Origin: Blastocatellia bacterium
Lineage (GTDB): Bacteria; Acidobacteriota; Blastocatellia; UBA7656
Direction: 5' to 3'
NCBI GenBank assembly: GCA_036277095.1
Contig: DASUNP010000067.1
Location: forward strand, 67,551 to 131,550
Length of the DNA: 64,000 nt
Positions 1-32,569 of the stretch are shown here, piece by piece. The notes under the pieces are model-generated. The model saw only the letters and a program-made list of their open reading frames with translations. It made no database searches and was not told the DNA's origin. The position numbers and the translations under genes were made by a program. How positions within the stretch are numbered: position 1 is the stretch's first letter; every line of letters begins with the position of its first letter.

Positions 1-963
1 GGCCTCTAAATCCGCGCGGACCATCTCCGCGACCAGCTCTTGAAACGAACACTCCGGTTGCCAGCCCAGCTCTCTTTTTGCTTTTGCATAATCCCCTATG
101 AGCAGATCGACCTCGGCGGGGCGTATGAACCGCTCGTCAACCTTGACGTATTCGCTGTAATCGAGCCCGACCTCGGCAAACGCGAGCTCGCAAAAGTCGC
201 GGACGCTGTGACTCTCCCCGGTGGCGATCACATAATCATCGGGCGCGGGCTGTTGCAGCATGAGGTGCATAGCGCGAACGTAATCTACGGCATGGCCCCA
301 GTCCCGTCTCGCCTCTAAATTACCGAGCCGGAGCTCGGTTGCCAGACCCAGCTTTATGCGCGCGACGGTGCTGGTGATTTTGCGAGTCACGAACTCGTAA
401 CCACGCCGGCTCGATTCGTGGTTGAACAGTATGCCGCTCACGCAAAACATGTCGTAGGCTTCCCTGTAATTTCTCGTCAGGTGATAACCGGCAACTTTGC
501 TGATGCCATAGGGGCTTCTGGGATGGAACTCTGTCGTCTCGGTTTGCGGAGACTCATGAACTTTCCCGAACATCTCGCTCGACCCGGCGAAGTAGAACTT
601 GCAGTTCGGTCGGAGCTCGCGCAACGCGGCCAGCATGAAATGTGTCCCGTTGATGTTCGCGTTCATGGTCGAAAACCCGTCGGCAAAACTTTCGGCCACG
701 AAGCTCTGCGCCGCCAGGTGATAGCACTCGTCAAAATCATGCCGGCTGACGACGTGAAAGATGCTGGCGTAACTCTCCAGGTTCGCCGGGTGAAGCGTCA
801 CCCGGTCGAGCAGATGGGCGATTCGCCCGAACCTCCGCTCGGGGTCTTCCATCGCTACGCGGCGCACAAGCCCGTGCACCTCGTAGCCTAAGCCGAGCAG
901 ATGCTCCGCAAGGTAGCTGCCATCTTGTCCTGTAATTCCCGTGATAAGCGCTTTCTTGCTCAT
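1..963 (-). CDS. gmd: GDP-mannose 4,6-dehydratase, partial (C-terminus runs off the window start). The ORF track omits it because it is incomplete.
   Basis: Reverse complement of 901-963 gives [22 protein letters not shown] (classic GMD N-terminus). Reverse complement of 1-72 gives ELGWQPECSFQELVAEMVRADLEA (GMD C-terminal region) in the same frame. The plus-strand ORFs 40-318 and 418-891 are antisense shadows. Confidence 0.8.
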   Translation of the reverse strand, partial: MSKKALITGITGQDGSYLAEHLLGLGYEVHGLVRRVAMEDPERRFGRIAHLLDRVTLHPANLESYASIFHVVSRHDFDECYHLAAQSFVAESFADGFSTMNANINGTHFMLAALRELRPNCKFYFAGSSEMFGKVHESPQTETTEFHPRSPYGISKVAGYHLTRNYREAYDMFCVSGILFNHESSRRGYEFVTRKITSTVARIKLGLATELRLGNLEARRDWGHAVDYVRAMHLMLQQPAPDDYVIATGESHSVRDFCELAFAEVGLDYSEYVKVDERFIRPAEVDLLIGDYAKAKRELGWQPECSFQELVAEMVRADLEA

Positions 964-980
964 GATCTTTCTCCAGGGCG

Positions 981-2213
981 CTACTGTAATATTTCGCTAT
1001 AAAGCCCGGCCATCTTTCGAGCGTATTCGGCCCAACTGAATCGCGCGGCCTGCATTAATCCCGCAGCCTTGCGCTCGCCCCACTTATCAGGGCGCTCGGC
1101 CCGCTCGCAAAGCGACCCTATGACCGCCTTGCGCCAGGCTTCGACATCGCCCACAGGGCAAAACAGGGCCGCCTCTCCGCCGACTTCCCTGAGCACGGCC
1201 AGGTCGCTTGCGATCACAGGAGCGCCGCAGGCCATAGCCTCTACGACGGGCAGACCGAATCCTTCGCCTTCCGACGGCTGCAATACGAGAGCCGCGCGCC
1301 TGTATACGGCCGCAAGGACCGCTCTATCGATGAAAGGCAGGACTTTGATAGAGCGGCTAAGGTCGAGCTTTTCAACCATCTTCTCTTGTTCAGCGGTGAA
1401 CTGGCCGCCGACACGAATCAGCCGGGCTTGCGGAAACTCTTTTACGACCAGCGCGAAAACCTCCAGCAACGTGTCTATCCGCTTTCGCTTGATGACGCTC
1501 CCGACGTGAAGAATATCGATCGCCCCGTCACCGATCGGGCCAAGCAACCGCTCGGCCCCCGCATCGCCCGGAGGGTCGGGATCAATCGAGCAAGACGGGT
1601 GGACGCCGTTCGCAACGACGGTGAGGCGGTCGGGCGGCACGACCGAATACTTGACCAGCTCGTCGCGCGTCGCCCGGCTATCGCAGGTTATCAGCGCGGC
1701 CTTGCGAAAGCCGTCGAGTATCCGCTTAGTCATCGCTTTGAACGCCCTTCCCCGGCGGTCGCGCGAAGGATCGAGCAGACAGCGGAAAGCGTCGAGGTCG
1801 TGACAGGTAATTATAGTCCGCTCGCCCGGTAGTTCGAGCGCAAGATGCGCGTAGCTGTGATCGATGATGTGAAAGATGTCGAACTGGTCCCTTTTCTCTC
1901 TCAGCAATCGCGGGTAATGCCAGAAGCGATTAATCAACCGGTCGGCGTTGAAACCGACGCGCACGCCGCCGAGCTTCGGGATGTGGCCGAACCATTGCGC
2001 CATGCGAGGCTGGACCCTCGCGACTGAAAGCTCTTTCGAATAATCGTTACGAAGATTCTTTAAGAGCATGTCTGCGACCAGGTCCATGCTGGGCCATCTC
2101 TCTTCGATCAAGTCGCAGATCACCCCCACGCGCCGGAGCGCACCATCTTTAGGCCCATCTATCACGAGGTCGCGGCCTAAATCTTTTCTGTTAGCAATGT
2201 CCGTCTCGACCAT
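981..2213 (-). CDS. GT4 family glycosyltransferase
   Basis: 410 aa; C-terminal EGFGLPVVEAMACGAPVIASD motif (GT4/GT-B E-x7-E region). Confidence 0.8.
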   Translation of the reverse strand: MVETDIANRKDLGRDLVIDGPKDGALRRVGVICDLIEERWPSMDLVADMLLKNLRNDYSKELSVARVQPRMAQWFGHIPKLGGVRVGFNADRLINRFWHYPRLLREKRDQFDIFHIIDHSYAHLALELPGERTIITCHDLDAFRCLLDPSRDRRGRAFKAMTKRILDGFRKAALITCDSRATRDELVKYSVVPPDRLTVVANGVHPSCSIDPDPPGDAGAERLLGPIGDGAIDILHVGSVIKRKRIDTLLEVFALVVKEFPQARLIRVGGQFTAEQEKMVEKLDLSRSIKVLPFIDRAVLAAVYRRAALVLQPSEGEGFGLPVVEAMACGAPVIASDLAVLREVGGEAALFCPVGDVEAWRKAVIGSLCERAERPDKWGERKAAGLMQAARFSWAEYARKMAGLYSEILQ

Positions 2214-2987
2214 CTATTTTTTGCGCGCTATAAACCACACCTGGCTCGCCATTTGTGGCGGCAGCCATGTGATGGGCGAGCTGAGTGTGGCTTCGACGTG
2301 AAACCTCTCGGAAAGAATTTCGCGCAATACTTTCCAGTTAAACCCCTTGTGATCGTGAAAAGCATGTTCGTCGTCGCCTTTGTAAATCGGGCGCGCGATG
2401 TGCTGACGCTTTCCCGGAAACAGGCTCGCGCAGTATTCCCTCAGCGTGTAAGCGCTCGTGTATTTGTAGTCGCCGAGCCCGCGCCATCCCGCGATCCTGC
2501 GCGCAGCCTGTTTGACGAGCAGCGGCATACCCGTTTCCACAGGGACGCTTATCAAAAGCTTCCCTTCGGGTTTAAGCGATCCGGCGAGAGACTCAAGCAC
2601 CGGGGCGAGTTGAACTACATGTTCGAGGACTTCCATGCAGAATACCGCATCGTAGGCTTCTCTGTGCGCCGGGGCTTGTAAATCGGCGACCGGCGCAAAG
2701 TCGAGGCCCGGCACGTCGCCGAACCGCTTGAGACAATCGTCGATTAATTCGGAATGTACTTCCGCCCCTACGGCTTCGCCCGGGGGCGCATCGCCAGCCA
2801 TTAGCATTGCCAGGAATGTCCCATCGCCGCATCCGTAATCGAGTATGCGCTGTCCGGCAAACTGCCGAGCCAGGCGCAGGCCGATTTGAAACCGGCTGTT
2901 GTGACTCCACGAAATCAGCCAGTCCTTACAGAATATTTGCTTCTTTGCGTAGTGCCCTTCTTCGAGGGCGTCGTTTACGTTGGGCAT
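2214..2987 (-). CDS. class I SAM-dependent methyltransferase
   Basis: 257 aa; RILDYGCGDGTFL glycine-rich SAM motif I; stop/start abuts the upstream GT. Confidence 0.75.
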   Translation of the reverse strand: MPNVNDALEEGHYAKKQIFCKDWLISWSHNSRFQIGLRLARQFAGQRILDYGCGDGTFLAMLMAGDAPPGEAVGAEVHSELIDDCLKRFGDVPGLDFAPVADLQAPAHREAYDAVFCMEVLEHVVQLAPVLESLAGSLKPEGKLLISVPVETGMPLLVKQAARRIAGWRGLGDYKYTSAYTLREYCASLFPGKRQHIARPIYKGDDEHAFHDHKGFNWKVLREILSERFHVEATLSSPITWLPPQMASQVWFIARKK

Positions 2988-2997
2988 GTTAATAAAG

Positions 2998-4182
2998 CTA
3001 TTGTGACATGCTCAAAAGCTCGTCAAAAAAGGCGAGGTGTTTTTTCGCGACGACGGGCCATCCGTAGGTCGAGCGGGCGCGATCAAGCCCCCTGCGCGCA
3101 AGCTCCGCGCGGCGCGAGCCGTCATCGATCAATTCTTCGATGGCGCGCGCCCATTCCCGCTCGTCCGATTCGCTGACGACGACGCCGGAATCCCCCACGA
3201 CGTATGGGATCTCGCCGCTGTCGCTCGCCACGACGGGCACGCCGCAGGCGAAAGCTTCGATCAACATCCTCCCCAACTGCTCGCGCCATCGCGGCGTTGT
3301 TTGACTGGGCGCGCACAACAGGTCCATAGCGTTGATGTAAGCCGGGACTTGATCGTGCTTAACGCCTGATACTACGCGGACCCTTTCGCCGTGTCTTGAG
3401 GCCCAGTCTCGCAGGTATCGCTCAAGCGGCCCCGCCCCGACAAAGAGCGCACGCCACGGCGCACAAACGCGATCGAGCGCGCGCGTCAGTATGTGCAATC
3501 CCTTCTCGGAAACGAAGCGACCCAGATAACCCACTACGGGCGGCCCCGCCTCGTCCCAGCCGAGCCGTGTGCGTATCTCGCTTCGGGCTTTCGTGTCGGG
3601 GTAGAAGCGAGCGAGGTCGACGCCCGGCGGGATGACGCGCCGCGCCTTGCTCAGGTAGCAGCGGCGGCTGGTCAAGGTCTGCTCTATCGTCTCCCCGAAT
3701 GCTATCCACCCCGAAGCGCGGCTCATAGAATACCGCTCGATCCAGTTGAAAGGCGGCGGGTAGCTCTTAGCGATATTTTGAAACGTCGCGTAGACCAGTA
3801 TTGCCTTAGCCGGCGACCACCGTGCGACCTGCCCTCCTGCGAATATGAAAGGCTCTTCCCAGCAATGGACGACGTCCCAGTCGTCATCGAGTATCGCGCG
3901 CAACTGCCGCCCGTAAAGCATCGCGTGTATGCGGCGGCTGAAACGCACGGGGACGACTTTGAGCCGAGAGGCTTCGCCGGGAAAAGTCTCCAGGCGAACG
4001 GGCCGAAGGTCGCCGTAAAAAAATGACGGGGCGACGGCTGTGACCTCCCAGTCGTCGCCGCCTGCTAAGGCCATCTCGTGCGCGAGCCTCCGGTTGAGCG
4101 CCACGCAGTAAGAATGCGCTATCGAAATTAGCCGCCGCTTTCTGCCCATAGGAACGTAGTGAGAATTGAGGGAATCATTCAA
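2998..4182 (-). CDS. GT4 family glycosyltransferase
   Basis: 394 aa; EAFACGVPVVASDSGEIPYVV motif. Confidence 0.8.
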   Translation of the reverse strand: MNDSLNSHYVPMGRKRRLISIAHSYCVALNRRLAHEMALAGGDDWEVTAVAPSFFYGDLRPVRLETFPGEASRLKVVPVRFSRRIHAMLYGRQLRAILDDDWDVVHCWEEPFIFAGGQVARWSPAKAILVYATFQNIAKSYPPPFNWIERYSMSRASGWIAFGETIEQTLTSRRCYLSKARRVIPPGVDLARFYPDTKARSEIRTRLGWDEAGPPVVGYLGRFVSEKGLHILTRALDRVCAPWRALFVGAGPLERYLRDWASRHGERVRVVSGVKHDQVPAYINAMDLLCAPSQTTPRWREQLGRMLIEAFACGVPVVASDSGEIPYVVGDSGVVVSESDEREWARAIEELIDDGSRRAELARRGLDRARSTYGWPVVAKKHLAFFDELLSMSQ

Positions 4183-4234
4183 AGTCGAGGTGCGCTGATA
4201 TTACTCACGGCGTTCCATGTTCACCAAATCACTG

Positions 4235-5047
4235 CTAGCAGACCTCTTTACGCCGTGCGTAAAGTAGCCCTAACTTGTCATGATCTCGCTTGCTGGGGCG
4301 TACCTGACAGACAAAGCCAGATGCCTCTAAAACGCTCTTGCATCGTGTTAGCGCGCCCGCACAAAGGTAGTCATGATATTCGAGGGCTACGCACTTAATC
4401 TTGCTTAGAGTCGAGTGCGTGGCCCCTTCTAGCAGGTCGGCTTCAGCCCCTTCGATATCGATCTTAAGCAATTCAACTGCTTGTCCAATCCGATCCACAA
4501 CTTCATTCAGATCGATCATCGGCACGGTAATCGAACCTTCTTCGTCTGAAAGAGCGGTTGTCCCATAGCCTGAAGCAATCACGCTAGGCACGTTTGTCCA
4601 CATTCTGAAATCAGAACGTACGCGCCCAACCGCTTCGTCGTATATCCTCACCCTATCTTTTTTGCCATTGACGATAATGTTATGGCGCAAGGTCTCATTA
4701 GTCTTGGGATTTGGCTCGTAAGCATGAATAAAAAGCTTGTCTGATTTCTTAGTACAATAGAGGGTAAATGCTCCGATATTAGCGCCGATATCAAGCACCA
4801 CGCCTTCTCTTGGAAAATCAAAGTGTTGGCTATAACACTCGTCCGCGAAAATTTCGAGCACCAGTGCTACCGGGCCATCAGCGATTGTATGGTGCAAATT
4901 TAGTCCGCAACGCAGTTGTAGTGTCGGCAAAGGGGCGTTTGAAAAATAAGGACGCCAAATCTCTTTCCAATTAACAAACCACTTCATCATTCTGAGTAGA
5001 ACCCAGTAGGAACGTAGTTTCTCAGTTATTTTGTTTGCAGGCATCAT
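4235..5047 (-). CDS. FkbM-family methyltransferase
   Basis: 270 aa; VLDIGANIGAFTLYC ... YEPNP motifs typical of Methyltransf_21/FkbM. Confidence 0.75.
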   Translation of the reverse strand: MMPANKITEKLRSYWVLLRMMKWFVNWKEIWRPYFSNAPLPTLQLRCGLNLHHTIADGPVALVLEIFADECYSQHFDFPREGVVLDIGANIGAFTLYCTKKSDKLFIHAYEPNPKTNETLRHNIIVNGKKDRVRIYDEAVGRVRSDFRMWTNVPSVIASGYGTTALSDEEGSITVPMIDLNEVVDRIGQAVELLKIDIEGAEADLLEGATHSTLSKIKCVALEYHDYLCAGALTRCKSVLEASGFVCQVRPSKRDHDKLGLLYARRKEVC

Positions 5048-5976
5048 AAGGTATCGCGCCTTTGATTATATTGTGGCCAGGTCTTCTTAATACTTCTCCA
5101 CTGCCTGAATGTGGCCCACCTGATGGGATGCCGCTCTCGCCATACTTCAGGTAGAGATGAAAATATCTCTCTTATAATCCAGCTCAATCCTCCCGAATCT
5201 TGAGTCTGCGACTGTCTTACCATCCGCAAGTAAGCATAAATGCGAAATGGTATGCTCAATATCATTATCGGCAGGGGCTCGTTATAGATCGCACCCAAAC
5301 AATCATTGCGTATTGCATGCCTGATATATTTCTGCTGACTGCGGCCCGAAGGGTCCGGCAGATGGCTGACAAGGGCATCCGGCAGGTACACGACCTTATG
5401 GCCCGCGTCGAGGAGCCTTATACAGAACTCTTTCTCCTCGCCGTAATAATGGAATAGACTGCGATAACCTCCCAGGGATAAGAAGACATCCTTACGCAGC
5501 AGGGTCGCAAACCCGATGAATGCGGCGACGTAGCAAGGATATTTCATAGGAGAAGGCTGCATAGACATTGGCCAGGGATTACCGTCAGCTTCGGCCTGCG
5601 CAAAAGCGACGGCAGCCACGCTCTCATCCTTTTGAATAATTTCGACTGCCTGTTTAATACCTTTCGGCTCGATAATGACGGCATCATCATCAAGGCTCAG
5701 GATAAGGTTTGCCGCAGCCGTTTTAGCTATTGTATTTCTTGCTACGATAGGGCCGTAGTTTTGATCGTGCCTTATCACTTTGATCGACGGCTTAAAGTTT
5801 TCGCCGATCTCTTTTCTTAAAGGCTCCTCGACCGGGTGATCCGAGCAGTCATCCACAATAATAATTTCATGTACAAAGTCAGATATGATGTTTATCGAAC
5901 GGACACACCTGACAAGTGAGTTAAGCCTGTTACGCGTTGTGATTCCCACAGTCAACTTAGAAAGAGCGGGTTGCAT
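5044..5976 (-). CDS. GT2 family glycosyltransferase
   Basis: 310 aa; N-terminal TVGITTRNR ... IIVDDCSDHP (GT-A DxD region); 4-bp overlap with the downstream gene. Confidence 0.75.
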   Translation of the reverse strand: MQPALSKLTVGITTRNRLNSLVRCVRSINIISDFVHEIIIVDDCSDHPVEEPLRKEIGENFKPSIKVIRHDQNYGPIVARNTIAKTAAANLILSLDDDAVIIEPKGIKQAVEIIQKDESVAAVAFAQAEADGNPWPMSMQPSPMKYPCYVAAFIGFATLLRKDVFLSLGGYRSLFHYYGEEKEFCIRLLDAGHKVVYLPDALVSHLPDPSGRSQQKYIRHAIRNDCLGAIYNEPLPIMILSIPFRIYAYLRMVRQSQTQDSGGLSWIIREIFSSLPEVWRERHPIRWATFRQWRSIKKTWPQYNQRRDTL

Positions 5977-5990
5977 AGTTCTTCAGCGCC

Positions 5991-7124
5991 TTATCCTTTA
6001 GCCCCTGTGTAAATCGCGAGAGTCCGTACGGCAGTTTTTCTCCAGGTCATATCGCGAACGATCTGAAAAGCGTTATCCGCAAGCCGCAAACACATATCCC
6101 GGTCTTCAAGCAATTGCACGATTGCATCGGCAAGGGCTCGCGCGTCGCGCGCGGCCACGACCAGCCCCGTCTGGTTGTCGCGGACGAGCGAAGCGGCGCA
6201 GCCGACGGGCGTCGCGACGACCGGCAGTCGCTGGCTCATCGCTTCGATCACCACCATGCCGAACCCTTCGTATGTTGAGCAGAAGACCAGCGCGTCATGC
6301 CGGCGGTAATGGCGCATGACTTCCTCTTCGGGAGCGCGCGGAGCTACCGTTATCAACTGCTGCAAATGGTCCGGGAACGAAGACCGTATAATGCTTTCCG
6401 AAACGCCGCCGCCCAGTATCGTCAGGTTGAATCGCGCGCCGCGCTTGAATAGCAGGTCAAAGCCCGCGACAAGGTAATCGATTCCTTTGACTCGGTCCCA
6501 CGTGCCGCAAAAAAGTATGCCGCCGCCGCGCGGCTCGTCCGGCGCGGGCGACTCGTCTAGGAAGCGACTCGATACGGCGTGCGGTACTATTTCGATGTCA
6601 CCGGGCGATTTCCATTTCCGCCTGACAGCAAATTCGCGGTCGCCCTCGTTGAGCAGCAACAGTTTGTCGGCGAGCCTCGCGGCGGCTTCGACCTGCGACA
6701 ATCGCGCCGCCGGGTACCATATCCTGCGCGTCCACGGTTTTCGCAAAAGCCCGGCCCGGTGATCGTCCAGCATCCTTTGATAATTCAGATGCTCCAGGCC
6801 GTTAGAACGGCTGATGAAGACTGTATCTTTGTACGCCCCCAGACGCCGCCGCGCCCCGAAGACGAAACCTTCTGCGCTCGCCACGTCGACCACGTCGTAA
6901 GGGCCGCGCTCGCCGAACCGCTTTGCAATCGCCCGCGCCGCCAGCAGTGGCCCGACCGCCTGGCGGACCTGGCGGTTCGCCGGGCGCGCGCCTATCTCTT
7001 TGCCGAACAGAATGTCGCACTCATGACCGAGCGCGTTATACTCTTCGCGCAGCTTATAAAGCACTTTCGCAGAACCGAGGAGCGCGTCGTCAGGGTAATC
7101 TCCGACAAGAAGAATTCGCATCAA
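5991..7124 (-). CDS. GT4 family glycosyltransferase
   Basis: 377 aa; EGFGMVVIEAMSQRLPVVATPVG motif. Confidence 0.8.
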   Translation of the reverse strand: MMRILLVGDYPDDALLGSAKVLYKLREEYNALGHECDILFGKEIGARPANRQVRQAVGPLLAARAIAKRFGERGPYDVVDVASAEGFVFGARRRLGAYKDTVFISRSNGLEHLNYQRMLDDHRAGLLRKPWTRRIWYPAARLSQVEAAARLADKLLLLNEGDREFAVRRKWKSPGDIEIVPHAVSSRFLDESPAPDEPRGGGILFCGTWDRVKGIDYLVAGFDLLFKRGARFNLTILGGGVSESIIRSSFPDHLQQLITVAPRAPEEEVMRHYRRHDALVFCSTYEGFGMVVIEAMSQRLPVVATPVGCAASLVRDNQTGLVVAARDARALADAIVQLLEDRDMCLRLADNAFQIVRDMTWRKTAVRTLAIYTGAKG

Positions 7125-7157
7125 GCGGCGTTCATACTATAAACCGGCGGTGCTCGT

Positions 7158-8000
7158 TCAATGCTCTACCGCGCTGAGAGCAAGATACCTTACTCTGGCT
7201 TTAAGGTTGCGACAGGCCTGTATAACCCTCTCCGAGCGCGACGGGCTCCACTTGAAAACCTCTCTCTGTAGCTCAACCTCTTCCTGCTCGCCAGCGTTGC
7301 GAGAACGCAATTCCGACACCTGCTCAAAGTATTTGACCCAGAGCGAAAAATAATAGGCGTCGAGAGCGGACAAAAATCGCGTGTATTGGGCGAAAGGGCT
7401 TTTCACCCATGCCTGCGTGTGATGCTCGTGGAGTATGTAGGGGTCGCGATTCAGCAAGATTGCATTTGCGTGGCATAGCAGGATGGCAGCATAAACGTTA
7501 TCCCACACGGGCTCGCCCGCAATATAAGGTCGGAAGCGCCAGTTGTTATCGATCCACCAGCGCGCCTCGACTATAAAAAAATCTATCCCCGCCAGAAGCA
7601 TTCCCAGCCTCTGGTCAGTCTCTCCGTCAAAGTCCATGCGAGAGAACAGATATGCCTGACTACGCCGGTCGATCGCGTAATCTATCGCACCATTTGAAAC
7701 GAGTATGTCCGAATTAAGGTAGCCGAAATAAGAGCAGCCGCGCTCGCGCGCCTGATTGGCGAGAACGTCGAACACTTCCGAGATTATAGGCTTCTGCGCG
7801 CCTTTCTTTCCTGTGACTTTGAGCGAATCGCTTTCAAGCTCACACAAGGTTTCAAAGCCTTCGGCCTCAATCGCGCCGGTCTTAAACTGTAGATTGACGA
7901 GGCAAACATTCTTTAGCTCGCGAAGCGATCTCAAGCAGTTCTCTTGTCTTCGCGCGGCATCGCCTTTCGGCGCATAGACGTTTACGCCTAATAGAATCAT
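7158..8000 (-). CDS. hypothetical protein in the polysaccharide cluster (possibly a GT-A-like transferase)
   Basis: 280-aa ORF in the same orientation and spacing as the cluster; no motif I can confidently assign. Confidence 0.4.
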   Translation of the reverse strand: MILLGVNVYAPKGDAARRQENCLRSLRELKNVCLVNLQFKTGAIEAEGFETLCELESDSLKVTGKKGAQKPIISEVFDVLANQARERGCSYFGYLNSDILVSNGAIDYAIDRRSQAYLFSRMDFDGETDQRLGMLLAGIDFFIVEARWWIDNNWRFRPYIAGEPVWDNVYAAILLCHANAILLNRDPYILHEHHTQAWVKSPFAQYTRFLSALDAYYFSLWVKYFEQVSELRSRNAGEQEEVELQREVFKWSPSRSERVIQACRNLKARVRYLALSAVEH

Positions 8001-8018
8001 CTTAATAGTCGCTGAAGT

Positions 8019-9230: not shown

Positions 9231-9236
9231 GTAAAA

Positions 9237-10496: not shown

Positions 10497-10498
10497 GA

Positions 10499-11359: not shown

Positions 11360-11377
11360 TATGGTTTTGATGGCTGC

Positions 11378-12565: not shown

Positions 12566-12603
12566 TCTCTATTTGCCTTGATCGCGAGCAGTGTTGGAGG
12601 CCG

Positions 12604-13449: not shown

Positions 13450-13472
13450 AAATTCTCGATCACGCTTGCCAC

Positions 13473-15892: not shown

Positions 15893-15904
15893 CTGACTTC
15901 GCGT

Positions 15905-16903: not shown

Positions 16904-16915
16904 AATGGATAATCG

Positions 16916-20348: not shown

Positions 20349-21027
20349 TCGCTTTCCTCCCGATCAAAATAAGGTTATCCGACAACGCGCGGGGAAAGAT
20401 GTTCGAGACGAATCGCGGAAAGTGCCAGGGCGACAGAATGATTCGCCCCTTGCGGCTGTAATCGATCTCTATGTCGCCGAGCTTGCACTCGCTCGCTATC
20501 CGCTTCAAATCCACTTCGATCAGCGCGGTGATGTGCGCGGGATAGCTCGCGTCTTGAAAAGCAGAGAACCTATGTTTGAAGACGAGGGTTATCAAACTGA
20601 GCAAACTGAGTTGATTAGGAGTTGTCACTAAAACCCAGCCGCCGGGCTTCGCAATTCTTAAGATGCTGCGCATGAATGCTCGCGGGTTTTCCAGATGCTC
20701 AATCGTCTCGACCGCGACGACCGCATCTGCGCAACCCGCCGGCAAGCTTAGATCTTCCTTATCGAGGTCCGCCAGAATAAGCTCTGCGCCCTCGGGAAAG
20801 TCATCATGCCGGATTGCGTCAACTCCTATGTAGCGGTCGAATCGATCGCGCACGAAAGGCCAGAGGTTGCCGGTTCCGCAACCAACGTCGACGAGCAACT
20901 CTCCGCGCGCGCAGCGATCTTTAAGGATTCCGGCGACCCTGCCGTAGATGGCTTCGTCGCTTGCGCCGAGACTCTGGCGCGCGCGCGCTTCAAGCTCTTG
21001 CCGATCCATAGAAGCGACAACATTCAT
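20335..21027 (-). CDS. class I SAM-dependent methyltransferase (start trimmed to the internal MNVVAS; the ORF track gives 21150)
   Basis: LLVDVGCGTGNL motif. The long form would overlap the upstream GT by 110 bp. Confidence 0.7.
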   Translation of the reverse strand: MNVVASMDRQELEARARQSLGASDEAIYGRVAGILKDRCARGELLVDVGCGTGNLWPFVRDRFDRYIGVDAIRHDDFPEGAELILADLDKEDLSLPAGCADAVVAVETIEHLENPRAFMRSILRIAKPGGWVLVTTPNQLSLLSLITLVFKHRFSAFQDASYPAHITALIEVDLKRIASECKLGDIEIDYSRKGRIILSPWHFPRFVSNIFPRALSDNLILIGRKASGNP

Positions 21028-21040
21028 GCGCCAGCCTCGT

Positions 21041-22186
21041 TCATGCGGCAGCCTCGCGCCCCGCAATATCAGCGAAGAGGTCATAAAGACATCGCAACTG
21101 CGTGAGGGGATCGCAAAGCTCGCGGGCGCGCTTCGGGCCCGCCTCCCCAAGCTCGACTCGAAGCGAGCGTTCTTCTATGAGCCGTCGCAAAGATTCGCTC
21201 AACGCCTCGGGGTCGTCGGGCGGGACGAGGATGCCTGAATCGTCGTCTATTATCTCTCTTGCGCCGCCCATCGAAGTCGTAACAACAGAGAGGCCGTTGG
21301 CGAGCGCTTCTATAAAGGCTATCCCGAATGGCTCAGGGCCCGTGTTGGGCTGGCAATAAATATCTGCCGCAGCCATAAGCCTTGCCACGTCCTTGCGCTG
21401 ACCGAGAAAGCGGACGCGGTCGGCAATGCCTGTTTGAGCAGCAAGCTTTTTCAACTCTTCAAGGTATCGAATCTCGTGCGGCCGCTGACCGCCGCCCGCC
21501 TGCCAGCAGACCCAACCAGGAATATCTTTTAACAGGCTGAGGGCTCGCAAATGTAACGCCTGCCCTTTCCACTCTTCCAAGCGGCTCGCCTGTAAAATAA
21601 CTGTCGCATCCGGCGGCGTATTCAGATCAAGCCTGAGCGCGCGCTTTTCGCCTTCCGATAAACTCGCCGCAGGCGCGGCCACAGGGCAGTGCAAAAGAGT
21701 TGATCGCACATGCGGGTACAACCGAGGCAGCGTAGCCGCTGTGTACAGGCTGTTAGCTATAACCACGTCAGGCGGCGTCTTGCTTGCCCATCGCTCCAAC
21801 CAGTGACGCCCGTCGACTGCATCGTGAAGCCAGAAGACGAGCGGCAGACGCGCCGCCCTGATAACAGGGCCGAAGATCGCCTGAGACCAGCACGAATGAC
21901 AGACGGCCAGATCGAAGCGGTCGCCATCAATCAATCGCTTTAATCTGCGTCGCGCCTGCCAAATGCTTGCGGGACGACTGACGCGAGCATTGCCAATCAT
22001 GTGAACCGATGCGCCCGAAGCCTTCAGCTCATCACTCAATCTCCCCTCGAAGCAGAGCGCGAAGTGTGGCTCCATCGCGGGGCAGAGGGCGCGACAGCTT
22101 GCCAGCGTCGCCAACATGCTCTCTACGCCGCCGTAAAGGTTTCCGCTGTAAACGTGAAGGACGCGCATAGATTCCCGCCAGCTCAA
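21041..22186 (-). CDS. GT4 family glycosyltransferase
   Basis: 381 aa; PEPFGIAFIEALANGLSVVTTSMGGAREII motif. Confidence 0.8.
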   Translation of the reverse strand: MSWRESMRVLHVYSGNLYGGVESMLATLASCRALCPAMEPHFALCFEGRLSDELKASGASVHMIGNARVSRPASIWQARRRLKRLIDGDRFDLAVCHSCWSQAIFGPVIRAARLPLVFWLHDAVDGRHWLERWASKTPPDVVIANSLYTAATLPRLYPHVRSTLLHCPVAAPAASLSEGEKRALRLDLNTPPDATVILQASRLEEWKGQALHLRALSLLKDIPGWVCWQAGGGQRPHEIRYLEELKKLAAQTGIADRVRFLGQRKDVARLMAAADIYCQPNTGPEPFGIAFIEALANGLSVVTTSMGGAREIIDDDSGILVPPDDPEALSESLRRLIEERSLRVELGEAGPKRARELCDPLTQLRCLYDLFADIAGREAAA

Positions 22187-23409
22187 TTGTTTAAAGAAGC
22201 CGCTTCGCAGTAGATGGGGATGAGGTCGGTTGCCAGCCTCGCGCGGTTGAAATGCTGCTCGGTCCAGGTCCTCCCCGCTCGCGCGAGGCTCTTTCTCAGA
22301 TCGATGTCTTCAGCCAGTTGCTTTATCCGGTCGGCCAACTCTTCCGCATCGCCGGGATGATGTCCCAGCGCATTCGTTCCCTCATCTATTATCTCTGCGG
22401 CCCCTCCGGCCCGGCTGACAATAACCGCTCGACCACAGGCCATGGCCTCGACGATGACCAGGCCGAATGGCTCGGGCTCCGTGCTGGTGTGAACAACGAT
22501 ATCGAGGGAGCGTATGGCGGAGGCCGTATCGTCGACGAAGCCTGTAAACCCCACCTTGTGCGATACACCCATTTGAGAAGACATTTTGCGAAGCTCTTCG
22601 AGGCTGTATTGACTCCCGGCAGTCTTGTATAACGCCGCGCCTATAACATAGCCGCGAAACTGCACAGAGGGTGGGAGCAGCGATAAAGCCTTAAAGAAGA
22701 CCGCGTGCCCTTTCCATCTCCCGAAGGTTGCTAACAGCCCCACTCTCAGCGTGCCGGGCGGAGCTTGCGGAAGGCTCGCGAGCATGTCCAGATTCGACTT
22801 TGACCCTGTCGGCGAGAACCGATCAAGATCGACAGCATTGTAAACGGGATGCACCTTCATGCCGCCATTGCATACCGCCCGCAGATCATCGGCCACGCTA
22901 TTGGAATTCGCTATGGCAGCCGAGCATCGAGATCGATACCTGCGCAGCAATCGGGTCATCACCGGGCGAGCGCTCACATAATCGTGAATGTGCCAGACAA
23001 GCGAGGCTTCGCGCGGACGCGACCACGCGCCCAGGATATGCATCTTGAATCCGTTTGTGTGCAAGACATCAGGATCAAGCTTGCGCAATTCACGTCGCAG
23101 CCGCGTTACATATTTAACGACCGAAAGACCGGCGGGCGCGCTTTTAACAAGCATGCTGAAAGCACCCGATTGATTTTGCCCAGGGCTGCCGGCTCCTGCA
23201 TCACCCAGGCGGGACAATGGCTGTGGGAACGGTAAAACCGTCGCCGCTATATTCAGCGACTTCACTTTTGAAAGAAGCGGTCCGTCTTCGCCGACCACAA
23301 GGCTCAGCTTCCAGTCCGGCCTGGCTGCGCTCAGGCTCGCCAGAATATCGATGAGGCTTTTCTCGGCCCCACCCAGTTGCCCCGACGGGCTAAGGTAGAC
23401 GATCTTCAT
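22183..23409 (-). CDS. GT4 family glycosyltransferase (start trimmed to [17 protein letters not shown]; the ORF track extends to 23787)
   Basis: [31 protein letters not shown] motif. The first 126 aa of the track ORF are Arg-rich nonsense that overlaps fcl. The ATG at 23409 overlaps the fcl stop as ATGA. Confidence 0.8.
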
Positions 23410-24359
23410 GGACGCTCGGAAGAGATAAGGGCTTGATAATACTCTATTGTTTGCCTGATGCCTTCTTCCAGGCTGATGCGCGCGCGAAAGCCAAACTCTT
23501 TTTCTGCGCGCGACGTATCCAAGCACCGGCGCGGTTGTCCATCGGGCTTGGCGTGATCCCACACCACTTCGCCCTCGTACTTTGTCAGCCGCACGATCAT
23601 CGATACAAGCTCTCTTATCGAAATCTCCTGACCCGTGCCCAGGTTGATCGGGTCGGGCTTGTCGTATCGCTCTGCGGCCATCAGAATTCCTTCGGCGCAG
23701 TCTTCGGCATGGAGAAACTCCCTGGTCTGAGCGCCGGTCCCCCAAACAACGATCTGCTGCTCGCCTTGCCTTTTGGCATCGATACATTTTTTGATCAGCG
23801 CCGCGACGACGTGTGAAGTCTGAGGGTTAAAATTGTCTCGCGGCCCATACAGATTTACAGGCAACAGGTATATCGAGTTAAACCCGTATTGCTCGCGGTA
23901 GGCGCGCGCCTGGACCAGGAGCATTTTTTTTGCCAGCCCGTAAGGCGCGTTCGTCTCTTCGGGGTAGCCGTTCCACAGGTCGTCTTCACTAAACGGGATG
24001 GGTGCGTACTTAGGGTAGGCGCAAATGGTCCCGAGAGCGACGAACTTTTCAACCTTTCGCTCCTTTGCCTCGTCCATCAACTGAACGCCCATCATCAAAT
24101 TGTCATAAAAGAATTTTCCGGGGTTTTGAAGGTTCGCCCCGATGCCGCCGACTGTCGCTGCCAGGTGTATGACAACATCCGGGCGCGCGTCGTCATACAT
24201 GCGGCAGATGCTTGCGCGGTCGCGCAAGTCGTAGTCCTGCGACCTCGCAACGAAGGGGTTTGAGCCGCCCATCTGCTTTAGCTTGTCGACCACGTATGAG
24301 CCGAGAAACCCGGCCCCTCCCGTGACGCAAACTCTCTTCGTGACCAGATAGTCAAACAT
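23406..24359 (-). CDS. fcl: GDP-L-fucose synthase (GDP-4-keto-6-deoxy-D-mannose 3,5-epimerase/4-reductase)
   Basis: 317 aa; [13 protein letters not shown] Rossmann motif and SDR-type YxxxK; sits next to gmd. Confidence 0.85.
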
Positions 24360-24430
24360 GGCAAGCGATACTCTGATGTCGGATTGGCGCGCTTGTTGAA
24401 CCCGTGGAAAGCGCGGGCAGGCTGAAACCG

Positions 24431-25477
24431 TTACCTGTCTGCCGACCCCCGAAAAGCCACCGTGTGGCCCGCCTCTTTGAGCGTGCGCTCTTGCCGGGCA
24501 AGCTCCAGATCGTGCTCGACCATCATCCTTACCAATTCATTGAATGAGACCTTCGGTTGCCAGCCCAGCTCTTGAAAAGCTCTGGAAGGGTCTCCCAGCA
24601 GATGGTCCACCTCGGTCGGGCGGAGGTAGCGCGGGTCGGGCAGGACATGATCCTGCCAATCGAGTTCCAGACACGCCGCAGCTTTGTCTAAAAATTCTCT
24701 CACGCTATGAGACTCTCCGGTGGCTACTACGTAATCGCCCGGCTCCGCCTGCTGAAGCATCAGCCATACGGCGTACATATAGTCTGCGGCGTAGCCCCAA
24801 TCCCTCCTGGCATCCAGGTTGCCGAGGTAGAGCTTCGTTTGCAGTCCCATCTTGATGCGTGCCAGGGCTCTGGTGATCTTTCGCGTAACAAAGGTCTCAC
24901 CCCGACGAGGCGATTCGTGATTGAAGAGAATCCCGTTGACTATATATATCCCGTAAGCCTCGCGGTAATTGACGGCCCACCAGTGGGCAGCGACCTTGCT
25001 GACGGCGTAGGGGCTTCGCGGGGAGAAAGTCGACCTCTCATTTTGCGGCGGGGGCGTGCTTCCGAACATCTCTGAAGAGCCGGCCTGGTAAAAGCGCACG
25101 TGCTTGGAGGAAATAGTTGCATAATTTCGAACCGCCTCAAGTAAACGCAGTGTGCCTGTGGCGACGACATCAGCGGTGTACTCTGGCTGATCGAACGAGA
25201 CTCTGACATGAGACTGGGCTCCGAGATTATATATCTCGTCGGGCTGTGTCTGTTCCAGGACATGCCTTATCCCCGTGCCATCCGTGAGGTCGCCGTAGTG
25301 AAGAAAGAGACGGGCCTGGCGGTCATGAGGGTCGGAATAAATATGATCGATTCGATCCGTGTTAAAGACGGAGGCCCGCCGAATGATCCCGTGGACCTCG
25401 TAGCCTTTATTAAGAAGCAATTCGGTCAGGTATGAACCATCCTGTCCGGTTATTCCTGTTATCAGAGCTTTTTTCAT
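24431..25477 (-). CDS. gmd: GDP-mannose 4,6-dehydratase
   Basis: 348 aa; [23 protein letters not shown]-terminus; second gmd copy in the window. Confidence 0.9.
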
Positions 25478-25525
25478 GAATCTGCTTTCCGGGTAATCTG
25501 AGCGGTCTGTGATTGGTGAGGCTCC

Positions 25526-27940
25526 TTACCCATCTATGACCTCGTCGGTCGCCTGCTGGTAGTAGCGCTGATAATAATAATCGTCGTAGCCGTCTCGCTT
25601 GAGGTCGAGGTTGTTCAGCACGACGCCGAATACCTTTGCGCCGACGGTCGAGAGCTCCTGTCGCGCACGCCGCACGACGGTGCGAGTGCTTTTGCCGCCG
25701 TGGACTACGAGTATCACTCCATCGACGAGCGTAGAAAGAATGACCGGGTCGGTCACGCTGATAAGGGGTGGCGAATCTATCAGTATGTGATCGTACCGCT
25801 CGGCCAGCTCGCCGAGCAGGTTCTTCATCCTGTCAGAGCTGAGAAGCTCGGCAGGGTTGGGCGGGATGGGGCCGCACGGCAGCAGCGACAGGTTGGGTAT
25901 CTGTAGCTTGTGTATGAGCCCGTCGACGTCAATTTCGCGAGACAGGTAAGTCGACAGCCCCTGCGTATGCGTTATGCCGAACGCTTTGTGTGTCGCGGGC
26001 TTTCTCAGGTCGCAGTCGATAATGAGCACGGATGACCCGAGCTGCGCCAGCGAGATAGCAGTGTTGACGGTGGTCGTCGTTTTGCCTTCGCCCGGCTGCC
26101 CGCTCGTCACAAGTATGGTCTTCGGCGGATTGCCCGCTGCCGACAAAAGCATGGACGTGCGGACTACACGGTACGCCTCTGCGGCAGTCGAGCGGTTGTC
26201 TAAGGCCATCAAACTCGTCGAATGGTGCTGGGCATTTTCAGAGACGCGGTCCGACCCGTTGGCGCCCTTCAGCCTCTTATTCAGCTTTTGGGCTGAAAAC
26301 CTTCCGGTCGCGCCCCTTGCGATAGCGGGTATGACGCCGAGCGCGGGCAGTTGAGCGTAGCGCCCCACGTCCTCGACCGATTTGATGGTGTTGTCGAGGT
26401 AATCGAGGAACAACGCCAGGCCGATGCCTGCCGCGAGGCTCAACAAGAATCCGAAGAGTATTGTCCGAAAGCGCCCCGGCCCCACCGGCGCTTTCGGCAC
26501 CTTTGCGGGCTGTATCAACTTCAGGTTGTTATGCTGCTGCGCGACCTCTACCTTCGCCTGGCTGGTCTTTTGCAGAAAGTCCGTGTAAAGCCCTTTCGCC
26601 GTGTCGACCTCCTGCTTGAGTATGTTGTATTGAATGGCGTCCTGGTTCTGCTTTACGGCGTCGCCTTTAGCCTGACCGAGCGCGGTCTTGAGCGACTGCT
26701 CGTCACGAGAGGCCAGTTCGTACTCGCCCTTGAGTTTATCTTCGAGCGCGCGGCGCGCCGCCTCCATCTGAGCGCGCGTGGTTGCCATCTCCTGCTTCAC
26801 TTCGATGACGGCCGGGTAGTCCGGGCCGTATTTGAGGCTCAGCTTATCGAATTGCGCTTGCATCTCGTCGAGCTTGTTGCGCAGAGTGGTGATCTTCGGG
26901 TCAGCGAAGGCCGCAGGGAGTTGGGCGACGCGGCCCTGGCGCACCTCTTCGTATAGCGACTGCTTCATGATGCGGTCGGTTTCGGCGCGCGTCGCTTGAT
27001 CGTGCAGCCGCGAGAGCTTGTCTGTAGTCAGCGTCTCTTTGCCGTCCGTGGTAAAGATATTGTGCTCGCGCGTGTAGTCGGCAAGCTTCTGTTCGGCCTG
27101 CTCGACCCTCGTCTTCAGCTCTCGCGTAGTCCGGTCGAGCCAGTCAGAAGCGTTTGTGAACTTCGCCGTCTTTGTTTGAAAGCTGCTTTCGATGAATGTC
27201 TGAGCTATCCCGTTTACGACAGAGGCGGCGATGACAGGGTCCGTGTGGGTGTAGGAGACCCTGAGCACACGTGTATCTTTTATATGCTCCACCTCAAGCC
27301 CGCCGGCTATCAGGCCCACGTAGGGGGCCAGGCGCTCGCTCTCTTCGGGCGAGCGCTGCCTTCCCGTCGTGGCCCAGGCAGCCGGGGTATTGATAGTGGA
27401 GTGCGTCTGTTCATCGGGAGGCTGCGCGCTCACGCGATTGCCAATAGACTTTACCGCCTCCCATACGGACTTCTTCCCTCCGTCTACGAATTTCGGATTC
27501 TGATCCAGATTAAGGCTGGCCACCACATCTTCAAGCAGCGGCTCGCTTGTCAGCGTAATCATCTTTGTCTTTATGCTCATCTCGGGATAATAGAGGTCCG
27601 TCTCATCGCCTTGAAGGACCATCTCGCCCGTCCCGGACTTGATCATCGTGGCGTTCTCTTTGCCCAGCTCTATAAGAGCCGAGGCCGCGAAGGCGGGCTT
27701 CGAGCGATAGGCTTCGATCGTTACTATCGTGGTAACGACGAAAGCTATAGTGATGATAAGCCATTTGCGTTTATGGACAGTGCGCCAGATGTCTCGCAGG
27801 TGCAGACCCTCTTGTTCGCCGTAGCCGTAGCCGTATCCCATAGCTTCCGGATAACCCGGCATCCTCGGATAACCTGCGCGCGTAAGAGGCGCGTCGTCTA
27901 CTGGTGCAATCCGCTCAAGCTCGGCCTTCTCGTCCGCCAT
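25526..27940 (-). CDS. wzc: polysaccharide co-polymerase with a C-terminal BY tyrosine autokinase (Wzc/EpsB-like)
   Basis: 804 aa; N-terminal Wzz-type TM region; Walker A GEGKTTTTVNTAISLA; C-terminal Tyr cluster DGYDDYYYQRYYQQ. Confidence 0.85.
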   Translation of the reverse strand: MADEKAELERIAPVDDAPLTRAGYPRMPGYPEAMGYGYGYGEQEGLHLRDIWRTVHKRKWLIITIAFVVTTIVTIEAYRSKPAFAASALIELGKENATMIKSGTGEMVLQGDETDLYYPEMSIKTKMITLTSEPLLEDVVASLNLDQNPKFVDGGKKSVWEAVKSIGNRVSAQPPDEQTHSTINTPAAWATTGRQRSPEESERLAPYVGLIAGGLEVEHIKDTRVLRVSYTHTDPVIAASVVNGIAQTFIESSFQTKTAKFTNASDWLDRTTRELKTRVEQAEQKLADYTREHNIFTTDGKETLTTDKLSRLHDQATRAETDRIMKQSLYEEVRQGRVAQLPAAFADPKITTLRNKLDEMQAQFDKLSLKYGPDYPAVIEVKQEMATTRAQMEAARRALEDKLKGEYELASRDEQSLKTALGQAKGDAVKQNQDAIQYNILKQEVDTAKGLYTDFLQKTSQAKVEVAQQHNNLKLIQPAKVPKAPVGPGRFRTILFGFLLSLAAGIGLALFLDYLDNTIKSVEDVGRYAQLPALGVIPAIARGATGRFSAQKLNKRLKGANGSDRVSENAQHHSTSLMALDNRSTAAEAYRVVRTSMLLSAAGNPPKTILVTSGQPGEGKTTTTVNTAISLAQLGSSVLIIDCDLRKPATHKAFGITHTQGLSTYLSREIDVDGLIHKLQIPNLSLLPCGPIPPNPAELLSSDRMKNLLGELAERYDHILIDSPPLISVTDPVILSTLVDGVILVVHGGKSTRTVVRRARQELSTVGAKVFGVVLNNLDLKRDGYDDYYYQRYYQQATDEVIDG

Positions 27941-31421: not shown

Positions 31422-31483
31422 TAGCAGTTCGTTGCTCATCACAGATAGCATCTGAAGCTGCTCAATGTCTATTCGTTAAGATC

Positions 31484-32509: not shown

Positions 32510-32569
32510 ATAAGTAGTGCCTGAAATACGGCGCTGTGATTCTTCAGCAGAGGAAAGCTTTTTGTTGTA

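Follow-up and report, generated by a model that had tools for sequence, protein, structure and literature searches.

Several described polysaccharide and glycan systems resemble the locus analysed here. Wzx/Wzy-dependent clusters of the group 1 capsule/colanic acid type in Enterobacteria (wza-wzb-wzc, gmd, fcl/wcaG, wzx, wcaD) share with it a Wzc BY-kinase co-polymerase, Wzx and a Wzy-like protein, and they likewise combine gmd and fcl for GDP-L-fucose with a mix of GT4 and GT2 glycosyltransferases (GTs) in one long operon. The present operon differs from these clusters in having no wza or wzb, in its predicted PNPT (WecA-type) priming in place of WcaJ, in carrying about twice as many GTs, and in having seven methyltransferases (MTs) in place of acetyl- and pyruvyl-transferases; matches to the NCBIfam colanic acid equivalogs WcaI, WcaL and WcaA fall far below cutoff. 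The pathway for the common polysaccharide antigen (D-rhamnan) of Pseudomonas aeruginosa uses a GDP-mannose-derived 6-deoxyhexose, GT4 rhamnosyltransferases and accessory MTs, and its shared point with the operon is gene g1, whose best PDB match is the P. aeruginosa GMD 1rpn. That pathway depends on an ABC transporter and needs Rmd, whereas the operon has no Rmd, Wzm or Wzt.

A different kind of precedent is the 27-kb polycistronic cluster for general protein O-glycosylation in Tannerella forsythia, in which wzx, five Gtfs and three Mtfs give rise to a methylated decasaccharide (PMC6120980). There, a complex, fucose-containing, O-methylated glycan is assembled on a lipid carrier (PMC6120980), as is predicted here from the genes. 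The T. forsythia system has no Wzc and no polymerisation, carries nonulosonic-acid genes and belongs to a different phylum, and the likeness drawn here is one of gene content. With the rhizobial O-antigens that are rich in fucose or other 6-deoxyhexoses and methylated or acetylated, and with the GT-A fucosyltransferase WrtF (PMC12595478), the common element is a pathway that uses GDP-fucose. Finally, g4 has a full-length alignment to NF038298, the family of HpsO from cyanobacterial hormogonium polysaccharide (HPS) synthesis (E 1e-55), with a score of 189 bits that lies far below the cutoff of 575, and it is therefore a distant paralogue of HpsO rather than an equivalog; no other Hps protein has a good match among the operon proteins in NCBIfam.

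The window, by which we mean the whole 64,000-nucleotide stretch of DNA that was analysed, comes from an uncultured soil acidobacterium that is Blastocatellia/Pyrinomonadaceae-like. In positions 1-27940, the open reading frame list and a frame check place 25 genes in a row on the minus strand, from <1..963 to 25526..27940, and this array is one long, tightly packed operon; all features described below lie on the minus strand. With refined starts, intergenic gaps reach 71 nt at most, and about 5-7 of the 24 junctions overlap, including ATGA overlaps at g6/g5, g15/g14 and g23/g22. No excess of terminator-like or promoter-like sites was found within the array. A promoter-like site, TTGACA-17-TATATT (28432..28460), lies ~490 nt upstream of wzc and is a candidate operon promoter by consensus match only; the number of promoter-like sites in the same scan was not above shuffle expectation. 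Families were assigned with Pfam and NCBIfam profiles, and matches to solved structures were sought in the PDB. Paralogues within the operon are at most 33% identical to one another (the seven MTs, at most 36%) and are therefore distinct enzymes rather than recent duplicates. The system would be of an ordinary kind, a Wzx/Wzy/Wzc pathway, but it is unusually rich in MTs.

The product of the operon is probably a heteropolysaccharide, extracellular or capsular, that is made by a Wzx/Wzy-dependent pathway under the control of Wzc. Its lipid-linked repeat unit would be unusually large (up to ~13 sugars) and would contain L-fucose, possibly a second GDP-mannose-derived 6-deoxyhexose, and several O-methyl groups; the gene content predicts a heavily O-methylated, fucose-containing product. 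The gene set for de novo GDP-L-fucose synthesis is complete, consisting of a long-type GDP-mannose 4,6-dehydratase of 348 aa (Gmd; g24, 24431..25477; PF16363, E about 1e-137) and a bifunctional epimerase/reductase, the GDP-L-fucose synthase Fcl/WcaG (g23, 23406..24359), which matches the solved synthases 8du0 (E 4e-68) and 1bsv (E 5e-60). A second, short-type Gmd (g1, 1..963; PF16363, E 1e-121) has lost ~9 C-terminal codons at the window start, is 330 aa long in a sibling, and is divergent from g24 (53% identical). GDP-L-fucose would be supplied by g24 and g23, and GDP-4-keto-6-deoxymannose would also come from g1, for which no reductase partner, including Rmd, was found here.

Two soil contigs (L165 and L171) whose DNA is 89-91% identical to the window carry, after gmd (g1), one more GT4 gene and then a gene for a PF00953 protein, a WecA/MraY-type polyprenyl-phosphate HexNAc-1-P transferase (PNPT), with which the cluster ends two genes beyond g1. 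By comparison with these siblings, the present genome would encode a 13th GT (GT4) and a PNPT priming enzyme, both beyond the window, and synthesis would begin on undecaprenyl phosphate primed by the WecA-type enzyme encoded just past position 1. The sequence-only reading had anticipated that the cluster continues upstream of position 1, with wbaP or wecA and wza. The siblings bear out a continuation, but this side lies downstream, at the operon's 3′ end, and the priming enzyme of their lineage is, by family assignment, a PNPT and not WbaP-type; the equivalent position in distant relatives is held by a Bac_transf enzyme. No Wza/Poly_export protein is encoded downstream of the cluster end in L171 or in the scanned ORFs of the window, and an OPX protein is therefore either encoded elsewhere or absent. 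Profile scans also agree with the earlier observation that acyl- and pyruvyl-transferases, a priming transferase and Poly_export/OPX are absent from positions 1-27940 and from the scanned ORFs of at least 120 aa elsewhere in the window.

Twelve proteins in positions 1-27940 have a GT fold: eight canonical GT4, one divergent GT4, two GT2 and one orphan GT-A. The canonical GT4 enzymes, each with Glycos_transf_1/Glyco_transf_4 matches above cutoff and an EX7E motif, are g22 (22183..23409; both profiles), g21 (21041..22168; Pfam E 6e-35), g17 (16916..18055), g12 (11378..12565), g10 (9237..10496; Pfam E 6e-32), g7 (5991..7124), the HpsO relative g4 (2998..4182) and g2 (981..2213). Start analysis places the true start of g22 at ATG 23409, giving 408 aa; the longest ORF, which reaches 23787, extends too far. 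The g2 family serves as a marker of the cluster family and was found in 104 genome and 232 metagenome stretches in our collection scans. The GT2 enzymes are g15 (14996..15892; PF00535) and g6 (5044..5976; PF00535, E 3e-19). Elongation on the cytoplasmic face would be carried out by the nine GT4-type enzymes in the window and the one just outside, all retaining, together with the two GT2 enzymes and the orphan GT-A protein g8, which are probably inverting and are the best candidates for addition of alpha-L-fucose.

Two of these proteins are atypical. By structure, g9 (8019..9230) is a GT-B protein of GT4 type, with neither Glycos_transf_1/Glyco_transf_4 above cutoff nor EX7E, and its family is marked by the motifs HFGTYG and QPYPDGASxRRTS. 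The orphan g8 (7158..8000), a putative GT, has a GT-A Rossmann-like fold by structure and a helical bundle at the C-terminus; it has no match in Pfam, NCBIfam or PDB profile searches, and an invariant N96-S-D98 (‘NSD’) stands where DxD, which is absent, would be expected. It differs from WrtF (PMC12595478): the two proteins are only 6% identical, Foldseek places other GT-A enzymes higher, and WrtF is a GT2 by sequence whereas g8 matches no sequence family.

Seven SAM-dependent MTs are apparently intact. Four are FkbM proteins, namely g19 (19416..20348; PF05050 E 3e-23; TIGR01444 110.4 bits), g13 (12604..13449; PF05050; 86.5 bits), g11 (10499..11359; 112.6 bits) and g5 (4235..5047; 92 bits), and their scores of 86-113 bits compare with a curated TIGR01444 cutoff of 37.7 bits. 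By synteny, g11 is the most widely conserved MT, with g10 always adjacent. In alignment, 4/4 keep D[IV]GA[NH]xG, xEP and K[IM]D[IV]EGxE (DVGANWG, LEP and KMDIEGAE in g19), and with them the glycine-rich SAM motif I, the acidic residue after beta-2 and the KxDxEGxE family motif; just one FkbM relative has been solved, the structural-genomics entry 2py6. The class-I enzymes are g20 (20335..21027; Methyltransf_23/11; motif I DVGCGTG), g16 (15905..16903; Methyltransf_23 E 2e-17), whose alignment reveals an N-terminal 4-Cys element, and g3 (2214..2987; Methyltransf_23/12/11; motif I DYGCGDG), with GxGxG kept in the alignment of g3 and g20. The four FkbM and three class-I MTs named in the sequence-only reading are thus borne out, and the concern that the FkbM proteins might be inactive through missing SAM-binding residues finds no support in their motifs. 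Its count of ten GT4 and two GT2 plus one extra GT-like ORF is off by one; and the unusually high MT:GT ratio is real, but is a conserved trait of the cluster family in Blastocatellia and is not confined to this genome. Enzymes of both MT classes can methylate non-sugar substrates too, and sugar O-methylation here is putative. The MT genes adjoin GT genes, with adjacency conserved for g16-g15, g13-g12 and g11-g10, and the MTs may each act beside a particular GT step, forming methyl ethers on individual residues before the unit leaves the cytoplasmic side.

For export, g14 (13473..14999) is a Wzx-like flippase of the MOP superfamily with ~12 TM segments; it has no direct Pfam match and is assigned by its 28% identity (BLASTP E 2e-45) to a protein that matches Polysacc_synt_3 (L157:4783-6351). 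The Wzy-like polytopic membrane protein g18 (18055..19449) has at least 8 TM/hydrophobic segments and a Wzy_C score of 20.8 bits (E 3.5e-4) that is below the cutoff of 31.7, and may be the polymerase, a ligase or O-OTase being equally compatible by sequence. The first gene of the operon, g25 (25526..27940; Pfam Wzz, GNVR and AAA_31; TIGR01007 190.9 bits versus a cutoff of 108), encodes Wzc, a PCP-2a chain-length regulator and BY-tyrosine autokinase with two TM segments, a Walker A GEGKT and a C-terminal Tyr cluster, DGYDDYYYQRYY (YYYxxYY tail). All the pathway proteins named previously (Wzx, Wzy-like, Wzc, fcl and two gmd) were recovered, Wzx by homology and the Wzy match below threshold. We propose that g14 would flip the unit, g18 would polymerise it, and g25 would govern both chain length and export, the latter via an OPX protein encoded elsewhere. 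To our knowledge, a 13-sugar repeat unit would sit at the extreme of the known range, which counts against a polymer of this kind, as do the lack of OPX near the cluster, the sub-threshold Wzy_C in g18 and the lack of a reductase for the second Gmd.

WaaL ligases and PglL-type O-OTases share the Wzy_C domain, and g18 matches this domain alone, and weakly. The product might then be a single non-repeating methylated oligosaccharide of ~13 sugars that Wzx flips and g18, as ligase or O-oligosaccharyltransferase, transfers as a finished block to a lipid anchor or, in S-layer or general O-glycosylation, to proteins. The number of GTs is easier to reconcile with one long glycan than with a typical repeat unit, and a core kept collinear across phyla would be expected of a conserved structural glycan more than of a variable EPS. 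PCP-2a Wzc-type proteins, however, are associated with polymer export rather than with en-bloc glycosylation. The first gene of this very operon encodes a complete Wzc, whose kinase looks active and which carries the Tyr cluster, and Wzc also lies near the core in distant relatives. Even with the precedent of the T. forsythia methylated decasaccharide (PMC6120980), we consider en-bloc transfer doubtful; neither a target protein nor any feature specific to OTases was identified.

The collinear core, g17-g16-g15-g14-g11-g10-g9-g7-g6-g4-g2, recurs in MAGs of Blastocatellia, Vicinamibacterales and Gemmatimonadota at 40-60% protein identity, indicating that the operon core is conserved across soil phyla as judged from gene order and protein identity, and in distant relatives this GT/MT core is likewise accompanied by Wzx, Wzy_C, Wzc and a priming transferase. 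In those relatives g17..g2 remain collinear, orthologues of g18-g24 are mostly absent or elsewhere, and the Wzc and Wzy_C proteins are encoded downstream on the opposite strand. This arrangement, together with the divergence of the two Gmd copies, would fit a composite of two adjacent loci, a conserved core (g17-g2, GT4 and PNPT, with Wzx) and a lineage-specific g25-g18 module (Wzc, Gmd, Fcl, two GT4, two MTs and Wzy), yielding two products or a core with a variable side chain, and hence no single 13-sugar unit. We regard this as unlikely: the whole array has a single Wzx, Wzy-like protein, Wzc and priming enzyme (the last seen in the siblings), its gaps never exceed 71 nt, and g18 and g17 overlap by 1 nt with no terminator between them.

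Chain-terminating methylation is a feature of ABC-transporter pathways and is not known from Wzy pathways, the divergence of the seven MTs (≤36% identity) argues against simple redundancy, and five MT positions are common to the window and a 58%-identical Blastocatellia locus (L163), each of which has five MTs in the g17-g2 block, including positions at which an MT of another family has taken over. A lightly methylated product, in which most MTs cap or terminate chains, methylate phosphate, amino or carboxyl groups, or are partly redundant, is thus very unlikely, although the three Mtfs of T. forsythia add two methyl groups with redundancy and terminal methylation is discussed there as a stop signal (PMC6120980), and although distant relatives carry fewer MTs (median 1, maximum 3, in 21 kb examined and not length-matched).

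Within the preferred Wzx/Wzy-dependent reading, g5 and g6 stand out by their low GC (0.471 for g5; 0.479, with GC3 of 0.52, for g6). In the close relative L171 both are replaced by a Methyltransf_24/RMNT_CmcI-type MT and a divergent GT2, and by this comparison the pair behaves as one exchangeable cassette. More tentatively, the core g17-g16-g15-g14-g11-g10-g9-(g8)-g7-g6-g4-g2-GT4 could encode one conserved, complex, multiply O-methylated glycan, acting as a ‘common antigen’ among soil bacteria and not as an EPS that varies from strain to strain, with the GT-A protein g8 and the EX7E-less GT-B protein g9 as two unclassified enzyme families and MT+GT cassettes tuning methylation. If this possibility were true, uncultured lineages that are abundant in soil would share the glycan across at least two phyla: Gemmatimonadota and, with its Blastocatellia and Vicinamibacterales, Acidobacteriota.

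Twenty-five genes follow one another on the minus strand of window positions 1-27940, as shown by an ORF map, with reading frames checked over the first kilobase; we number them g25 to g1 in the order of transcription. Once over-extended starts had been corrected (refined starts: g22, ATG 23409; g10, 10496; g20, 21027; g21, 22168), the largest intergenic gap was 71 nt, and stops and starts overlapped by 1-4 nt at several junctions. Scans of the array found promoter- and terminator-like sites no more often than in shuffled sequence, and none in the gaps. This layout suggests that the array forms a single long transcription unit. A near-consensus -35/-10 pair (11/12 match) about 490 nt upstream of wzc, the first gene, is only a lead, and the 5′ side of wzc is occupied by a divergent lasso-peptide cluster.

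Family calls for the 25 genes were made with Pfam and NCBIfam. The product of g25 is Wzc, with Wzz, GNVR and P-loop domains (TIGR01007 above cutoff), two transmembrane segments, a Walker A motif and a C-terminal tyrosine cluster. It is followed by Gmd (g24) and Fcl (g23), the latter having GDP-L-fucose synthases as its best solved relatives (E 4e-68). A second Gmd, g1, is truncated at the window start and only 53% identical to g24; it is of the short type, and the nearest solved structure is P. aeruginosa GMD. Polytopic g18 has a weak Wzy_C match, and the 12-TM protein g14 is, by homology, a Wzx-type flippase (28% identity, E 2e-45, to a relative matching Polysacc_synt_3). Glycosyltransferases (GTs) of family GT4 are encoded by g22, g21, g17, g12, g10, g7, g4 and g2, and those of family GT2 by g15 and g6, while methyltransferases (MTs) comprise the FkbM proteins g19, g13, g11 and g5 and the class-I enzymes g20, g16 and g3; g9 and g8 received no family assignment. 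The feature described by the sequence-only reading is real and correctly located, and its interpretation as a fucose-containing, O-methylated polysaccharide cluster is largely reasonable. Its totals of 12 GT-fold proteins and seven MTs in the window are borne out, but its split into ten GT4, two GT2 and one further GT overcounts by one and implies 26 genes; we count nine GT4-type, two GT2 and one orphan GT-A protein.

An exact match to g2 was found on one contig only, a 23-kb Logan contig ending within g1; the best identities otherwise were 58% among GTDB-representative genomes and 57% among JGI metagenomes. Extension past position 1 was indirect, by way of approximately 90%-identical siblings reached through homologues. 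Two collinear farmland-soil contigs match the window at a nucleotide identity of 89-91%: L165 over window 1-19215, and L171 over 1-4149 and 6040-8817. Carriers of the cluster include the farmland-soil populations of ERZ1761308 and ERZ1761309. Both carry gmd (330 aa) followed by a GT4 gene (382 aa) and a gene for a PF00953 WecA/MraY-type transferase (536 aa), so g1 in the window is short by about nine codons. After the PF00953 gene of L171 the cluster ends, and convergent NTP_transf_5, asparagine synthase, sucA fragments and a peptidase follow. Because the siblings carry the GT4 and PF00953 genes after gmd, the cluster does run past position 1, as had been proposed, though at its 3′ end rather than upstream. 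Of the wbaP/wecA and wza genes expected there, the siblings supply a priming enzyme of the WecA type (PNPT) and no OPX gene nearby, and Wza is absent beside the cluster end in L171.

We consider a Wzx/Wzy/Wzc pathway the best explanation of the locus, and a fairly probable one. In this model g24 and g23 would convert GDP-mannose to GDP-L-fucose, g1 would supply extra 4-keto-6-deoxy intermediate, and the PNPT encoded beyond the window would prime undecaprenyl phosphate. The cytoplasmic unit would then be extended by up to 13 GTs, the GT4 enzymes acting with retention. The GT2 and GT-A enzymes are probably inverting and are natural candidates for alpha-L-fucosylation from GDP-beta-L-fucose. While SAM is available, the seven MTs would methylate particular residues, each following its neighbouring GT, after which Wzx would flip the unit, g18 would polymerise it and Wzc would set chain length and export. 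What we observed are the family, fold and motif assignments and the synteny; donor and acceptor specificities, MT-GT pairing, polymerisation and the presence of methyl ethers are inferred. The best documented operon of wzx with GT and MT genes is the Tannerella forsythia O-glycan cluster, which makes a methylated, fucose-containing glycan (PMC6120980). A complex methylated glycan of that kind, left unpolymerised and moved en bloc by a ligase or OTase of the Wzy_C type, would fit the large number of GTs, the weak Wzy call for g18 and the conservation of the core. The co-transcribed Wzc is hard to reconcile with such a product, and we regard this alternative as unlikely.

The Wzx/Wzy/Wzc reading places the cluster beside the group 1 capsule and colanic-acid pathways, which share the machinery of Wzc, Wzx, Wzy, gmd and fcl. 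The window cluster differs from them in that wza and wzb are missing, priming falls to a PNPT, methylation takes the place of acetylation and pyruvylation, and the number of GTs is approximately doubled; the NCBIfam equivalogs in this comparison all matched far below cutoff. Cyanobacterial HpsO is a distant full-length relative of g4 (189 bits; cutoff, 575).

To assess conservation, all 25 proteins were searched by tblastn against 170 related loci and the ORFs of those loci were clustered. The most widespread elements (59-117 loci) were the g9-g10 pair and g2 with the GT4 that follows it, a gene whose absence from the window is explained by its place beyond position 1. Of the 79 loci 15 kb or longer, 23 had at least six of nine core genes. 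MAGs labelled Acidobacteriota, Vicinamibacterales and Gemmatimonadaceae share the collinear order g17-g16-g15-(g14)-g11-g10-g9-(g8)-g7-g6-g4-g2, with 40-61% identity at the protein level, and the core is followed downstream in them by a priming enzyme of the Bac_transf type, an FAD oxidoreductase, NTP_transf_5, a Wzy_C protein and Wzc. The Blastocatellia MAG locus L163 (~58% identity) retains the entire block from g17 to g2 and the following GT4, with five MTs, two of them class-I enzymes at positions that are FkbM in the window, and therefore methylation capacity is conserved at the locus while the enzyme family is replaceable. The FkbM gene g5 and the GT2 gene g6 (4150-6040, minus strand) have a GC content of 0.47-0.48 and GC3 of about 0.5, against 0.52-0.62 and 0.59-0.73 in the remaining operon genes and a GC of approximately 0.57-0.62 in their neighbours. 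In L171, otherwise 91% identical, exactly this segment is swapped for a Methyltransf_24/RMNT_CmcI-type MT and a divergent GT2. The g5-g6 pair is an exchangeable MT and GT module, a strain-variable cassette, and was probably acquired horizontally. That the locus is instead a composite, with the conserved core and a lineage-specific module yielding two products, seems to us somewhat less plausible even than en bloc transfer.

With respect to METHYLTRANSFERASES integrity, all four FkbM proteins gave full-length TIGR01444 matches well above cutoff and keep the D[IV]GA[NH]xG SAM motif, the acidic xEP after beta-2 and the family motif KxDxEGxE, so the inactivity that would have undercut the sequence-only reading was not found. 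The GxGxG motif is canonical in g3 and g20, while g16 has the variant DVGAHVG and an N-terminal four-cysteine element. The MT paralogues share at most 36% pairwise identity and are therefore distinct enzymes; that they are redundant, cap chains or act on non-sugar groups, leaving methylation light, is very improbable. We set aside, as evidence that the window is exceptional, a comparison of MT counts in which it stands out (seven, against at most three in 57 related loci), those loci being 21 kb centred on g2 and unmatched in length.

No solved structure was matched by g8, g9 or g14 at the sequence level, and structure prediction was needed. The g8 model (pLDDT 96, pTM 0.93) has a GT-A fold with a C-terminal helical bundle. 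Its family consists of ~280-aa ‘hypothetical proteins’ (123 clusters, none with a Pfam domain) confined to Blastocatellia, Vicinamibacterales, Longimicrobia and Gemmatimonadaceae, and has an invariant N-S-D (N96 and D98 in g8) at the DxD position. Non-canonical DxD motifs have been described in GT2-type fucosyltransferases (PMC12595478), and a possible connection of g8 with fucose transfer is only a lead. Many of the 622 homologues of g9 carry GT4 Pfam domains and are also named as GT4 by their sources; g9 lacks the EX7E motif kept in all eight canonical GT4s of the cluster, and its family has the invariant motifs HFGTYG and QPYPDGASxRRTS in its place.

The lasso-peptide cluster divergent from wzc (28658-37495, plus strand) encodes a PqqD-type B1 chaperone (28658-28990), a B2 protease (28974-29447; NF033537 above cutoff), a lasso cyclase/Asn-synthase homologue (29447-31306; NF033535, 404 bits) and an HprK-like kinase (31484-32509), followed by a 2OG-Fe(II) oxygenase, a PRMT-like methyltransferase, an NTP_transf_5 protein and an ABC exporter. 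Between cyclase and kinase, a small plus-strand ORF (31266-31424) is a candidate precursor, ...MKSQDKTTAKKDYNTPKLFIYGNISQLTQ/NITDMGMNDNPTMKT, whose leader presumably fits the lasso pattern YxxPxLx3Gx5Tx; in the proposed 15-aa core, position 9 is Asp and the last residue is a Thr that the kinase might phosphorylate, and Asn would be an unusual first residue. Further plus-strand genes (37743-44566) encode a second PqqD-like protein (37743-38225), a second NTP_transf_5 protein (38235-39323), a large Peptidase_C25 (gingipain-family) ORF (39071-42565) and an astacin metalloprotease (42851-44566). NTP_transf_5 genes recur in or beside the polysaccharide cluster of the relatives L009 and L171. In L163, two reverse-strand genes (18069-19585) lie between the polysaccharide block and the PF00953 priming gene; one has an MbnB_TglH_ChrH domain, of a family known among RiPP-modifying enzymes, and is a further peptide-modification gene adjoining the cluster family. 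A low-GC stretch of the window (44000-48000, 0.43-0.49) may be an island; on the minus strand lie genes for a class-I methyltransferase (45211-45873), a VWA-domain protein (46012-46998), a 271-aa protein without family (47110-47925) and, adjoining the stretch, a NodU/CmcH-type carbamoyltransferase (47963-49702) that could modify a glycan or a natural product. Methyl-cycle genes (50681-57390, minus strand), B12-dependent methionine synthase MetH (50681-54157) and a homocysteine S-methyltransferase/MTHFR fusion (55561-57390), lie ~23 kb from the operon and are followed by an aspartokinase and a PLP-dependent enzyme; their proximity is probably coincidental housekeeping.

We found no description of this cluster family in the literature on FkbM, O-methylation, Acidobacteria/Blastocatellia or EPS clusters, and nothing in that on NoeI and 2-O-methylfucose. 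The system belongs to a well-known kind and stands above routine by its MT load with the modular arrangement of the MTs, by a core collinear across phyla and by two unclassified GT families. It offers, in g8 and g9, an unclassified GT-A family and a non-canonical GT4-like family; in the four FkbM and three class-I MTs, each apparently paired with a GT, candidates for new sugar O-methyltransferase specificities; and a natural example of the exchange of MT and GT cassettes. O-methylated glycans are proposed targets of fungal and animal innate-immune lectins (PMC6120980). The surface polymers of Acidobacteriota and Gemmatimonadota, which rank with the most abundant bacteria of soil and with the least cultured, have hardly been characterised. 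By general carbohydrate chemistry, a polysaccharide with much 6-deoxyhexose and many methyl ethers would be relatively hydrophobic and would resist common glycosidases, properties that bear on how soil aggregates and repels water, on survival of desiccation and on the persistence of microbial carbon.
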